A stretch of DNA of 64,000 bases from an uncultured Eubacteriales bacterium (GCA_949287075.1 CASEEU010000012.1:919-64918), one strand, 5' to 3'. Positions 56,478 through 64,000 are shown, numbered from the stretch's first letter. Numbers and translations are program-made. The notes: generated by a model from the letters alone, not told the origin.

Positions 56478-57050
56478 ATGAAGAGAGTATTTTTTAATAT
56501 CATTTTTATGATTTATTTAGTAATCGCAATATTTGTAACGGTTTGCTTATTGTCATACAATGACTATAAAGTATCAGAGTTTGGAACAATATCATTTGTT
56601 ATTGTACCAGATAATAAATTGAATCCAGATTTTAACAAAGGTGATTTAGCAATTATAGATAAAGCGGACAGATTAGAAAAAGGAGATAAATTTCTATACT
56701 ATGATGTATATAATGAACAAGTTATTATAAGATTAGGAACAGTTAATGATATAGATGATTCAAATGAATTTGATGTAAAATACTTAATAGATGATGGAGA
56801 ATATGAAATTTCAGATGAATATGTCATAGGGCCTACATCAACAGCAACAGTAATGCAAAATGTAGGAACAGTCTTAGGAATTATAGAATCAAGATGGGGA
56901 TTTCTATTTTTAATTGTATTACCAGCATTAATCGCATTTGTTAATCAAATCATGGTTGTTGCTACTGGAATAAAACAAGCAAAAAAAGAAATTAAAGAAG
57001 AAGCAAAAGAAGATAAAAAAGAAACTAAGGAAAAGGAAAAAAATGACTGA
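56478..57050 (+). CDS. Degenerate SipW/S26 signal-peptidase-like membrane protein
   Basis: Same topology as SipW (TM-FG..F.IV...P....GDL...VIG-TM) but GSM Ser and THR His are absent. Confidence 0.55.
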   Translation: MKRVFFNIIFMIYLVIAIFVTVCLLSYNDYKVSEFGTISFVIVPDNKLNPDFNKGDLAIIDKADRLEKGDKFLYYDVYNEQVIIRLGTVNDIDDSNEFDVKYLIDDGEYEISDEYVIGPTSTATVMQNVGTVLGIIESRWGFLFLIVLPALIAFVNQIMVVATGIKQAKKEIKEEAKEDKKETKEKEKND

Positions 57051-57675
57051 TTTAGGTAAAAAAAACACAAAAAAAGCATTGATTTTTTTGTGTTTATGTA
57101 TCATTTTACTAATTATATATGGAGTTATAAGAATATATGCACTTTTTCATAGTGAACTAGGAGCAATCGTTCAGCTTGAAAATGGAACATGGAATATTCA
57201 TGTCAATGGAACAGACATAACGAAAGGAACAGATATTAAATTTGATGTAAACAATGTTACTGTGGAAGAAAATGAACATGTTAAACCAGGGAATATAGCA
57301 CCTGGTTTAACCGGTATTTTTAAAATCAATATTGATCCTAAAAATACGAATGTTTCAACCAGATATGATATCCATTTAGATGAAGAAAAACTTACAAATC
57401 CAAATATACAAATAAAATCCATAAAAGAAACATTAAATGGAAATGAATTAGTAAAAACAGATAAAAATACATATACAGGAATCATACCATTAGAAAAAAT
57501 ACAAGAGGGAACCACAAATGAAATTACAGTAGAAGTAGAATGGATGGAAAATGAAAATAATCATGAAGAAGATATTGAATTAGGAACAACATGGGAGGCA
57601 GAATATCAAATTTCAATTACTGTGCATGTTTGCCAATATTTAGGAGAAGAGTTAAATCAGTACACTAGTGAATAA
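57043..57675 (+). CDS. SipW-substrate, TasA/camelysin-like secreted protein
   Basis: Signal ending IYA-LF.S; W.I.VNG; NIAPG..G.F.I.ID. Confidence 0.6.
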   Translation: MTDLGKKNTKKALIFLCLCIILLIIYGVIRIYALFHSELGAIVQLENGTWNIHVNGTDITKGTDIKFDVNNVTVEENEHVKPGNIAPGLTGIFKINIDPKNTNVSTRYDIHLDEEKLTNPNIQIKSIKETLNGNELVKTDKNTYTGIIPLEKIQEGTTNEITVEVEWMENENNHEEDIELGTTWEAEYQISITVHVCQYLGEELNQYTSE

Positions 57676-57686
57676 CAGGAGAAAAA

Positions 57687-58226
57687 ATGTCAAATCATAA
57701 GAAAAAGAAAACAATTAGTATCATAATAGGACATATTCTTAATGTATTATTGCTTATCGTTTTTATTTTAATCATGATAGGTATTTATTATATAGTACAA
57801 ATTAAAGTATTCCAAAATGATTATGCGAATCTATTTGGATATACGTTTTTTGAAGTAGCAACAGGCAGTATGTCAGGTACAATAGAAGTAGGAGATGTTG
57901 TGATTGTCAAAATTACAAAAGATGTAAATAAAGGAGAAGTCATTGTATATAAAGAAGGAGACAATTTTATTACACATAGATTAGTAGAAAAAGATGCTAA
58001 TCACTTAGTAGCAAAGGGAGATGCTAATAATAGTGAAGATAAACCTATTACAGAAGATCAGATTTTAGGAAGAGTAATTTATATGCTTCCTAAATTAGGA
58101 GTGTGGAGAAAAATCTTTTTGTCACCAGAAATCATAGGACTTATTTTACTTTTGCTTTTCCTTTTAGGAATTGTTGTGCAATTTATTTCTAAAAATGATA
58201 AAGCAAATAAAGAGGATGAAAAATAA
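57687..58226 (+). CDS. sipW: Signal peptidase I, SipW/ER-type (S26B)
   Basis: VATGSM, GDVVIV, ITHR, KGDANN..D. Confidence 0.9.
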   Translation: MSNHKKKKTISIIIGHILNVLLLIVFILIMIGIYYIVQIKVFQNDYANLFGYTFFEVATGSMSGTIEVGDVVIVKITKDVNKGEVIVYKEGDNFITHRLVEKDANHLVAKGDANNSEDKPITEDQILGRVIYMLPKLGVWRKIFLSPEIIGLILLLLFLLGIVVQFISKNDKANKEDEK

Positions 58227-58284
58227 GAAATACAATTACAGCAATTTTATTAAAATTATGACTAAAGAAAGGAATGATAAACGA

Positions 58285-62398: not shown

Positions 62399-62415
62399 AG
62401 GGGAGAGAATAACAG

Positions 62416-63555
62416 TTGGAAAACTTAGAAGTTATAGAACTATATGAAAATTCAAATCATGAGAAAACAAAAACATTTATAGATAGTGCTGAGTCTACTC
62501 TGAAAGTGCAAACAGAAAAAAAGTATATAACAAGAGATATAGAGTGGATAAATATGATGGAAGAAGTTATGCCACATATAGATTCCATTTTTAGGACTCC
62601 AAATCGTTTTATAAAAAATGAAGAAGAAACTGTAAAAATAGAACAAGCAAGAAAAGTATCAGTAGAAACGATAAAGCATTTATCTAAACATACAAATTTT
62701 ATACAAGATATTGATAATGAAACAGGAGATGTTATACCATCCAAATTATTAAATGTAAGAAAAGAAGAAACCTATGAGACATACGAAAATCGTTTAATAT
62801 ATACATTAATTCAAAATATGAAGTATTTTGTCAATATAAGAAAAAATTCATTATTGCAACCAATAGGTAGTGATAATAAAGAAGAAAACAAAGATAATAA
62901 ACAATTAGAATATAATGCAAAATCTAAACTAAATGATGAAGAAGTAGATATTAATGTTTCTATTAACTCCAAGCTAGATACTGAGCAAAAAGATGATAAA
63001 GAAAGAAATAAAAGCTTATTGTTACGAATAGAAGAAATAGAAAGAAAAATATCAGATATTGAATCAACTGAAGTATACAAAGTACTTGATAAAGCAAATA
63101 TAACACTTGTAAAAGAACCAATTAGAAAAACAAATGTTGTTTTGAAGAATGTTCATTTTCAATATGCTATGAAATTATGGGAATTTTTAAAGGTCAATTT
63201 TGATGAACAAACCATAGAATCAGAAGATAATAAAGACTACATGGACAATGGACAATTAAAGAAGATGATGGACGAAGCATTTTTATTACAATTTTTAGCA
63301 ATGAAAACTTTAGACGAAGATACTATGGAAAAACAAGATATAAAAAAAGAAATAAAAGGTATTGTAGTAGAGCAAATGCTAGATAAAATGTTAGATATTG
63401 ATGAAGATATAACTGAAGAACAATTAAGACAAATGGTAGCTGAAAAATATGAAGTGATAAAATATAAGAAAATGGCAGTTTTACAAGATATACAAAAGAT
63501 ATTTAAAAAACACATTGACCAATACGAAGAAATGGTTGAGATAAAGGGGAATTAA
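62416..63555 (+). CDS. DUF2357/McrC-like partner protein, no evident nuclease domain
   Basis: TYETYENR motif and Y..LW segment; acidic helical C-terminus; directly follows the McrB-like gene. Confidence 0.7.
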   Translation: MENLEVIELYENSNHEKTKTFIDSAESTLKVQTEKKYITRDIEWINMMEEVMPHIDSIFRTPNRFIKNEEETVKIEQARKVSVETIKHLSKHTNFIQDIDNETGDVIPSKLLNVRKEETYETYENRLIYTLIQNMKYFVNIRKNSLLQPIGSDNKEENKDNKQLEYNAKSKLNDEEVDINVSINSKLDTEQKDDKERNKSLLLRIEEIERKISDIESTEVYKVLDKANITLVKEPIRKTNVVLKNVHFQYAMKLWEFLKVNFDEQTIESEDNKDYMDNGQLKKMMDEAFLLQFLAMKTLDEDTMEKQDIKKEIKGIVVEQMLDKMLDIDEDITEEQLRQMVAEKYEVIKYKKMAVLQDIQKIFKKHIDQYEEMVEIKGN

Positions 63556-63558
63556 AAA

Positions 63559-64000
63559 ATGGGAGAAAAAATACAAAAACTAAAAAATAATAAAATACTA
63601 AAGATTATTGCAAATATTATATATATCATTATTTTTATCATAGTTTTATTTATATTAATGATTGCAATTTTACAAAGAACGACAAATAATGAAATAACAT
63701 TATTTGGATATAGAATCTTTGTTGTTGCAACAGGAAGTATGACACCTAAATATGAAGTAGGAGATGTTTTGATTTCAAAAGAAGTCGATCCAGAAACGAT
63801 TCAAGTAGGAGATGACATTGTGTATGAAGGAAAAGAAGGAACTTTCAAAGACAAGATTGTAACTCACCAAGTCATTATGGTAGAAAAAGAAAATGAAAAC
63901 TATAGAATTCAAACAAAAGGTATTGCAAATACAAAAGCAGATCCAGAAATAACTCAAAATGAAGTAATCGGAAAAGTTATTTATAAAATGGGAGTATTAT
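63559..64000 (+). CDS. sipW: Signal peptidase I, SipW type (3' partial; not in ORF track)
   Basis: MGEKIQK...FGYRIFVVATGSMTP...GDVLI...IVTHQV...TKGIAN..D. Confidence 0.85.
   Translation, partial: MGEKIQKLKNNKILKIIANIIYIIIFIIVLFILMIAILQRTTNNEITLFGYRIFVVATGSMTPKYEVGDVLISKEVDPETIQVGDDIVYEGKEGTFKDKIVTHQVIMVEKENENYRIQTKGIANTKADPEITQNEVIGKVIYKMGVL

Follow-up and report, generated by a model that had tools for sequence, protein, structure and literature searches.

A membrane-anchored McrB-family GTPase and its nuclease-free McrC-like partner are an integral part of a SipW-type signal-peptidase cluster in an uncultured Eubacteriales bacterium

In a 64,000-nucleotide (nt) stretch of the genome of an uncultured Eubacteriales bacterium (GCA_949287075.1, CASEEU010000012.1:919-64918; hereafter the window, i.e., G000:C12:919-64918 of the 81,008-bp contig C12 in a 1.86-Mb genome), a membrane-anchored McrB-family GTPase (g7) and a nuclease-free McrC-like partner (g8) are encoded among genes for SipW-type signal peptidases and putative secreted proteins, and this arrangement is conserved over deep divergence. 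The locus is very probably a member of the CoCoPALM class, which was named in 2024, and the g7/g8 pair is likely to work with the secretion or fibre genes around it and not in restriction or defence. The best explanation overall, to which we give about even confidence, is that the pair serves as the cytoplasmic GTP-driven engine or gate of a SipW-dependent assembly of surface fibres.

Nine plus-strand open reading frames (ORFs; g1-g9) run from position 56478 to the end of the window, with intergenic gaps of -8, 11, 61, 19, 27, 18, 17 and 3 nt from g1 to g9 and a low G+C content (0.21-0.30); the nine tightly spaced, co-oriented genes described by an earlier sequence-only reading of the window are thus real. 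The cluster continues past the window, so that g1-g9 (g9 being partial in the window) form only the front third of the ~22.6 kb from g1 to g18; g10-g18 lie beyond the window on C12, and g0 lies upstream of g1. Besides g7 and g8, the cluster contains five SipW-type genes, at least seven signal-anchored putative secreted proteins and one protein of more than 2,500 amino acids (aa). That dozens of species-level genomes show the same order puts such an arrangement far beyond chance.

The GTPase gene g7 (60878-62398, plus strand) encodes an N-terminal segment of ~54 aa, a transmembrane (TM) segment (residues ~55-80), a heptad-like stretch (~81-113, by a crude manual count), a linker and an NxD-type GTPase domain (~190-500). 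A sequence search of the PDB gave McrB chains as the only significant matches (6hz4 at E 5.9e-4, 6ut6 and 7vsr; E 6-9e-4), and the alignment spans Walker A, Walker B and the signature region. In a family alignment of 132 rows, made of g7 and those 131 of its 150 nearest cluster representatives with at least 400 aa, Walker A (G216-K222), Walker B (D287-E288), N347 and D349 were invariant. The signature was N-x-D in 131/131 ungapped rows, followed by D (96 rows), E (30) or another residue (5), and reads N347-N-D349-D350 in g7. Exactly one strong hydrophobic segment, that at ~55-80, was present. Lysine or arginine occurs once among the 19 residues that precede it and six times among the 20 that follow, a charge bias that places the GTPase domain in the cytoplasm. 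A Pfam-type scan of g7 matched no DNA-binding family, and the TM segment and heptad-like stretch stand in that place. Furthermore, g7 was the best-conserved gene of the cluster: over the 33 loci with a g7 less than 90% identical, its median identity was 76% vs 29-66% for the other genes. At E<=1e-30 the family comprises 767 clusters (50% identity), and a TM segment precedes the GTPase domain in 84 of the 142 assessable nearest representatives, the rest carrying extensions of ~450 aa.

The partner g8 (62416-63555, plus strand) matched DUF2357 (PF09823) above the cut-off (E 1.3e-11), in agreement with the labels (a TM/McrB-like protein followed by a DUF2357 protein) that the two genes had been given at first sight, and the only two DUF2357 genes of the genome are g8 and its paralog on contig C15. 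The AlphaFold2 model of g8 (mean predicted local distance difference test score, pLDDT, 69) is mixed alpha/beta towards its N-terminus and helical in its C-terminal half, with long predicted helices and with residues 302-379 below pLDDT 50; no nuclease fold of the alpha/beta type follows the DUF2357 domain. Nuclease families matched neither g8 nor any of 19 clade partners, of which 14 matched DUF2357 as their sole Pfam family. Moreover, Pfam and NCBIfam scans (E<=0.05-0.1) found no nuclease or HEPN family in the cluster ORFs g0-g18. When the g8 model was compared with known structures using VIA-align, McrC chains came at ranks 4 and 6 (6ut5_G, Z 7.5 over 136 residues; 6hz4_M, Z 7.2 over 140 residues), the 6hz4_M alignment covering McrC residues 36-189, i.e., its N-terminal domain only; this predicted-structure match is compatible with a McrC-like domain and not decisive. 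Foldseek gave no match to the g8 model at E<=0.001, and neither single-sequence nor profile searches of g8 against PDB sequences gave anything significant.

McrBC is the textbook DNA-translocating restriction motor. With its canonical forms (from E. coli and T. gammatolerans; 6hz4, 6ut6, 6ut5) the pair shares an AAA+ GTPase core with Walker A, Walker B and the sensor asparagine, a McrC N-terminal (DUF2357) partner encoded directly downstream and, probably, a mode of working in which a ring is activated by a plug. On the other hand, the signature is NxD here and NxxD there, the TM anchor of g7 replaces the N-terminal DNA-binding domain, the partner is without a PD-(D/E)xK nuclease, and the pair is embedded in a secretion operon. 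We regard g7 and g8 as descendants of a DNA-restriction enzyme that lost its nuclease, gained a membrane anchor and became a fixed part of the cluster.

The class that the locus most resembles has been named in one paragraph, with its treatment deferred to a future publication, in the available text of Bell et al. (eLife 2024, PMC11090510). As outlined there, the GTPase of CoCoPALM is of the NxD type and carries, as a fusion, a TM and coiled-coil domain that is FtsB-like; the class is associated with signal peptidases and has coiled coils on both partners, the McrC homolog (DUF2357) bearing a coiled-coil extension. Measured against that outline, g7 has the NxD-type McrB GTPase with an N-terminal TM segment and a short coiled-coil-like stretch, g8 is a DUF2357/McrC-N partner that is extended by helices and lacks a nuclease, and SipW-type genes lie tightly on both sides of the pair; nothing in the outline contradicts membership. 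The sequence-only reading had held that no characterised system showed this combination, which stands as far as experiments are concerned, but the combination itself had already been named in print in that paragraph. Among the literature matches listed for "cocopalm" only Bell et al. and its preprint were relevant, and the promised follow-up was not found; searches on SipW with McrB, or on McrB with pilus assembly and signal peptidase, found nothing further.

The linkage of the pair to SipW was conserved well beyond this genome. Among the loci recovered from genome contigs, 40 of 42 have a SipW-type gene adjoining the g7/g8 pair, and the gene order g0-g14 is retained as far as the flanks permit; the two loci without an adjoining SipW-type gene, L050 and L051 (40-43% identity), are on contigs 6.8 and 7.3 kb long. 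The genome itself has a second cluster (G000:C15:34817-80029), with a g7 paralog 60% identical and with the order pseudo-SipW, substrate, SipW, substrate, g6-like gene, TM-McrB, DUF2357, SipW. In a class-wide sample, g7 matched 34 of 399 scored genomes at E<=1e-5, and 16 besides G000 at E<=1e-80; flanks were taken from 14 of those 16 plus one further genome (G408), giving 15 loci, and from five weak matches. SipW stood beside the pair in 11 of the 15 class-level loci, three were without it and one, at a contig end, was uninformative, while none of the five weak matches had any cluster gene nearby. Eleven deeper loci (ten from other Clostridia families plus L044; 40-56% identity) all share one core: an EGxDxxC protein, an (S/T)YAWF protein, SipW, TM-McrB, DUF2357 and then SipW or a TM protein. 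Chance adjacency and a recent insertion of a defence cassette were rejected in view of this synteny together with the in-genome duplicate, and the g7/g8 pair is integral to the cluster. The coupling of a restriction-type motor to a SipW-dependent surface-fibre operon, as had been proposed from the window alone, is supported by the synteny, the duplicate, the absent nuclease and the membrane anchor; the outcome that the sequence-only reading had named as refuting it, a pair not syntenic with SipW genes in other genomes, did not occur.

The family relations of g7 nevertheless raise the question of defence. A tethered relative of CoCoNuT or McrBC might guard the fibre, a likely phage receptor, or sense an attack on the envelope and trigger an effector, perhaps via the peptidases. 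In the available text of Bell et al. (PMC11090510), the other members of the NxD branch, to which g7 belongs along with CoCoNuT (NxD GTPase, long coiled coils, tandem nucleases) and PDC-M26, are predicted defence systems. The PADLOC candidate model PDC-M26A matches g7 at E 4.5e-34, the occurrence within the genus is patchy, and the nearest g7 relatives lacking a TM segment, which carry N-terminal extensions of ~450 aa, occur on plasmids, where a soluble AAA protein is coupled with a DUF2357 protein; one plasmid example pairs a soluble 800-aa AAA protein with a 705-aa DUF2357 protein and has no SipW. Yet the PADLOC match is limited to the GTPase core of g7 and leaves g8 unmatched, and among phage (2 records) and plasmid (282 records) matches none covers 80% or more of g7, all being confined to the GTPase core at 37% identity or less, so that the full-length form was not found in these collections. 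CoCoNuTs, as the same text describes them, always carry a nuclease or HEPN-type effector, whereas no nuclease, HEPN or other effector family was found in the cluster genes; the locus differs from them further in its membrane anchor and its SipW and secreted-protein context. The evolution of g7, the slowest of any gene in the cluster, and a gene order that is unchanged across deep divergence and between the two copies within the genome also speak against such a role. We consider a conflict or defence role improbable, and the membrane-sensing defence module that the sequence-only reading had offered as its second option is less likely than a coupling to the fibre genes.

The signal peptidases themselves were assessed with TIGR02228 (SipW / ER-type signal peptidase I; cut-off 51.85 bits) and by their catalytic Ser and His columns, which we assigned on the presumed SipW pattern. 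Three genes passed on both counts: g3 (57687-58226, plus strand), g9 (63559-64000 in the window, plus strand, with the full end at window-equivalent 64170 and 203 aa complete) and g17 (C12:78833-79411) scored 76-112 bits and retain Ser (GSMxP box) and His (THR box) in alignment A1. The match was at E 2.3e-21 (76.3 bits) for g3, an ER/archaeal-type enzyme with GSMSG and THR boxes, and at E 1.7e-24 for the window part and E 5.1e-25 for the full protein of g9. The other two copies appear dead. In g18 (C12:79392-79979; 60.3 bits, above the cut-off) both catalytic residues are gone (Ser column L, His column N). In g1 (56478-57050, plus strand), a conserved pseudo-SipW with a membrane-anchored signal-peptidase fold, the matches to NF046067 (E 7.8e-7) and TIGR02228 (E 1.5e-4) are both under their cut-offs, the former far under, and Ser and His are replaced by K and I, respectively; 13 of 13 g1 orthologs (36-97% identity) also lack both residues. 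The SipW assignments of the sequence-only reading (g1 degenerate, g3 and g9 genuine, g9 running off the window) were therefore accurate. All ten TIGR02228 matches of the genome lie in the C12 cluster and its paralogous C15 cluster, five in each.

A database search for longer g9 homologues revealed three natural fusions (P0272-P0274; 420-428 aa), in which a g9-type peptidase and a g10-type protein form a single chain with a charged linker between the halves and with the TM anchor and AYAWF motif retained between them. These sequences suggest that g9 and g10 may be a dedicated enzyme-substrate pair, or that such proteins process themselves. Fusions of DUF2357 to SipW were not seen in the corresponding searches, which are weak evidence: the search for longer g8 homologues gave one match (1,197 aa, DUF2357 only), and none of the four from the g9 search had DUF2357.

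Putative substrates for these peptidases surround them. Within the window these are g2 (57043-57675, plus strand; 210 aa), g4 (58288-58857, plus strand; 189 aa) and g5 (58877-59830, plus strand; 317 aa), and beyond it g10 (C12:65130-65756), g11 (C12:65769-66362, minus strand; a g2 paralog), g12 (C12:66448-67185) and g13 (C12:67344-68390). The substrate status that the sequence-only reading gave to g2, g4 and g5 is inferred from their N-terminal anchors and motifs; no Pfam or NCBIfam family matched any of the putative substrates. In hhalign comparisons g2, g4, g10 and g11 formed one group (82-100%; g2-g11 100%, g2-g10 93%, g2-g4 81.5%, g4-g11 93.8%), and g12 was tied to g13 through a C-terminal EGxDxxC motif (91% over 38 columns). 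By contrast with these, g5 stands alone (hhalign <=26% to all other substrate families) and is conserved at 54-96% in 37 loci. The g5-like gene of the C15 cluster is split into ORFs 60333-60725 and 60769-61212, with a 259-aa ORF, transposase-looking by eye, just downstream (C15:61464-62243).

The anchors of these proteins end in recurrent motifs. In g2, Y32-A33 is invariant and F35 nearly so (alignment A4), the anchors of g10 and g13 close with AYAWF and TYAWF, respectively, and an (S/T)YAWF motif is conserved in 11/11 deeper loci. TIGR04088, the model of the SipW-cognate signal, had as its two best genome-wide matches g13 (15.7 bits) and the C15 paralog (18.5 bits), both under the cut-off of 19. 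The AlphaFold2 model of g2 (pLDDT 72) predicts a helix at residues 3-36, i.e., an N-terminal TM helix, and after it a sandwich of ten strands. Its structure matches include several pilins and subunits of extracellular filaments, with TasA far lower: Foldseek ranked the TasA fibre (8aur_A) 47th (E 0.02) and gave no match at E<=0.001, and the archaeal bundling pilin 7ueg_A, which is TasA-like, reached Z 5.4 amid many unrelated sandwiches. In Atlas, g2 came close to a camelysin cluster (0.93), a lead only, and family profiles of g2 and g13 gave nothing significant against PDB sequences. A complex prediction with three copies of mature g2 (residues 34-210) scored 0.05 vs a mark of 0.42, which speaks neither for nor against polymerisation.

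The known systems closest to this part of the cluster are the SipW fibre operons, such as tapA-sipW-tasA of B. subtilis and sipW-tasA-calY of B. cereus. To our knowledge, no NTPase (nucleoside triphosphatase) accompanies the SipW fibre operons of B. subtilis, B. cereus or C. perfringens. Like these, and like sipW-bsaA, the C. perfringens operon in the available text of PMC11580942, the present cluster has a dedicated ER-type SipW beside small signal-anchored secreted proteins, and the (T/S)YAWF at the anchor end resembles the SipW-cognate signal, albeit below the TIGR04088 threshold. It differs in having five peptidase paralogs and a GTPase pair, and in substrates without a TasA/camelysin Pfam match.

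Between the substrates and the GTPase lies g6 (59858-60859, plus strand), a clade-specific 333-aa cytoplasmic protein of unassigned fold. Its earlier label "EAL-like" failed every statistical test that was run, and the candidate was rejected: the PF00563 match was at E 0.037 (13.8 bits vs a cut-off of 31.3), only 2 of 14 g6 orthologs matched EAL at E<=1, and hhalign gave 1.6-2.1% against canonical EALs and 0.2% against small operon-associated EALs, with an EAL-EAL control at 99.9%. The g6 family profile found nothing significant among PDB sequences, and a position near EAL-named clusters in Atlas (0.89-0.90) is a lead only. Genuine EAL genes, on the other hand, accompany the core in 8 of 11 deeper loci (L083-L089 and L044), where they lie inside the retrieved flanks. 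In seven of those a small, divergent, stand-alone EAL gene is directly upstream of the g12-like gene, and in six loci a ~755-785-aa EAL-domain protein is downstream of the core; the one scanned (L086) also has GGDEF. Cyclic di-GMP (c-di-GMP) enzymes typically govern adhesion and biofilm structures, and the neighbouring EAL genes would link the system to c-di-GMP signalling.

These neighbours bear on a second way of reading the pair, as a regulatory switch or scaffold: the tethered ring and its partner would gate the SipW peptidases and time cleavage or release, possibly in response to GTP or c-di-GMP, and do no mechanical work. Once SipW has cleaved their subunits, TasA-type fibres do not depend on cytoplasmic energy, so that a motor is not obviously required. 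With two dead SipW copies conserved, the peptidases may form a multi-subunit assembly in need of organisation, the EAL genes accompany the core in most deeper loci, and the gap between g8 and g9 is just 3 nt. However, invariant GTPase motifs across 131 representatives and the highest conservation in the cluster point to g7 as an active enzyme, though switches hydrolyse GTP too. Moreover, family scans and the hhalign comparison of g6 showed no c-di-GMP-binding domain in g6, g7 or g8, and no riboswitch, for c-di-GMP or otherwise, was found at E<=1 in 54700-64000. A switch without mechanical work thus seems to us rather unlikely.

Further downstream, the cluster contains g14 (C12:68978-70552), a 524-aa TM-less protein that is coiled-coil-looking by eye only, and g15 (C12:70565-78271), a 2,568-aa ORF without a Pfam match, whose N-terminal anchor ends in RAFS and which by eye has many G-rich repeats. 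A 99-aa ORF (C12:78462-78761) lies between g15 and g17; it may be a gene of its own or a sign that the giant gene is interrupted. The C15 cluster is adjoined by an ORF of 8,440 aa. With giant ORFs flanking both in-genome clusters, the pair might instead be an export or anchoring machine for giant surface proteins (>2,500 aa on C12, 8,440 aa on C15), to which the SipW and small-protein genes are accessory. The SipW-less relatives point the same way: in this variant (L093-L095 and L051) TM-McrB and DUF2357, often with a second TM-McrB, are followed by giant TM-anchored proteins, and three such loci (L093-L095) keep the pair beside TM-anchored proteins of 1,341 and 1,602 aa that have a transglutaminase core and, in one, an AgI/II C2 adhesin domain. 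But L084 has the full compact core with no giant ORF within the 19 kb fetched, and SipW flanks the pair in 11/11 deeper loci. We hold a machine dedicated to the giant proteins to be quite improbable.

Upstream of the cluster, g0 (55407-56318, minus strand) encodes a 303-aa cytoplasmic protein with a DUF5344-like stretch (PF17279, E 1.6e-6; 28.9 bits vs a cut-off of 27), and it is beside g1 in 32 loci (tblastn, at least 50% coverage). It is on the plus strand in six related species (L014, L015, L023, L028, L034 and L046) and on the minus strand elsewhere. An invertible switch was considered and rejected: no strong inverted repeats flank g0, the best spanning pairs being 74-76% complementary in AT-rich DNA, and the change of orientation therefore looks evolutionary and not like a phase switch. 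A promoter-like site (56414-56442, plus strand; TTGAAA, 17 nt, TATATT, with TG) is 36 nt upstream of g1, by consensus match only. The promoter and terminator scan, in which site counts were no higher than in shuffles (77 vs 72.8) and which supports nothing alone, found no convincing terminator within the operon. A terminator-like hairpin (55335-55360; nine pairs and a T-run) follows the ORF at 54864-55313 and bounds the upstream genes from the divergent g0/g1 promoter region. In two metatranscriptome runs of a single study, RNA contigs 88-99% alike were present for 24 and 27 of 30 bins. The junctions g1/g2, g2/g3/g4, g7/g8 (X4, 61940-62567) and g8/g9 (X6, 63400-63738) are spanned by such contigs, which is weak evidence that the pair is co-transcribed with its neighbours, and uncovered parts of the operon (e.g., 62725-63495 in X4) are not interpretable.

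How, then, might the pair act as the engine or gate of fibre assembly? The ~22.6-kb cluster most likely builds a cell-surface fibre or an adhesin structure. Anchored pre-subunits (YA|xF, YAWF and [KR]Y motifs) would be exported by Sec and cut by the three active SipW-type peptidases, while the two dead copies (g1 and g18) would probably be scaffolds or substrate holders. The GTPase would most likely form a McrB-type ring at the cytoplasmic face, tethered by its TM helix and short coiled coil, with g8 in the McrC position as the plug of the ring that switches on GTP hydrolysis. The complex may thus work on, or gate, membrane steps and not DNA, the anchored pre-subunits being extracted or handed to the peptidases and the growing fibre. 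A functional analogy would be the assembly ATPase and prepilin peptidase of type IV pili: type IV pilus and type II secretion systems likewise combine a cytoplasmic hexameric NTPase, an anchor-trimming peptidase and several minor subunits. There is no homology, however: a McrB-family NTPase here stands beside a signal peptidase of the Ser/His and not the aspartic prepilin type, and no platform protein was identified. The specific motor mechanism is put forward tentatively, at somewhat less than even confidence.

Several points weigh against this reading: i) literature searches found no experiment on any CoCoPALM system; ii) the Pfam DivIC/FtsB model, which finds the two true DivIC genes of the genome, did not find the g7 N-terminus at E<=10, so the FtsB homology reported for the class was not reproduced; iii) unrelated helical proteins reach Z 8.5 vs 7.2-7.5 for McrC in the comparison with g8, whose McrC matches are thus in the range of helical noise; iv) the structure matches of g2 are generic beta-sandwiches (top Z 6.2), so that the fibre itself is putative, and TasA/camelysin PF12389 matched none of g2, g4, g5 and g10-g13, nor the cluster in six frames, which leaves the TasA-like substrate fold of the sequence-only reading unproven; v) the link to SipW is not universal, the pair being SipW-less in 3 of 15 class-level loci (L093/G209, L094/G259 and L095/G411), in whose genomes the SipW genes sit on other contigs; vi) in the genus g7 occurs in 5 of 24 other genomes, a patchiness seen in accessory adhesin clusters and defence systems alike; and vii) the RNA contigs come from a relative that is 88-95% alike, may reflect DNA carry-over and are contigs, not transcripts.

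A bolder form of the proposal is that the McrBC-derived ring is the engine of a previously unrecognised Gram-positive fibre pathway, in which dead SipW copies serve as adaptors, YAWF subunits are extracted by GTP hydrolysis that the McrC-like plug sets off, the polymer carries the giant adhesins and, in related families, c-di-GMP exerts control. We regard it as possible and are inclined to doubt it. If true, Firmicutes would have a third route of pilus building, next to those of sortase pili and type IV pili, and a motor of DNA restriction would clearly have become one of protein assembly.

For practical work, pipelines that annotate defence systems may mislabel such loci, as PDC-M26A matches the GTPase core of g7. 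The locus also offers experimental handles, namely two diverged copies of the cluster in one genome, conserved pseudo-peptidases and natural peptidase-substrate fusions. If descendants of McrBC do power or gate the assembly of fibres, this would be a striking change of function and a new route of pilus biogenesis in gut Clostridia that are abundant and uncultured, and adhesion and colonisation would likely be affected.

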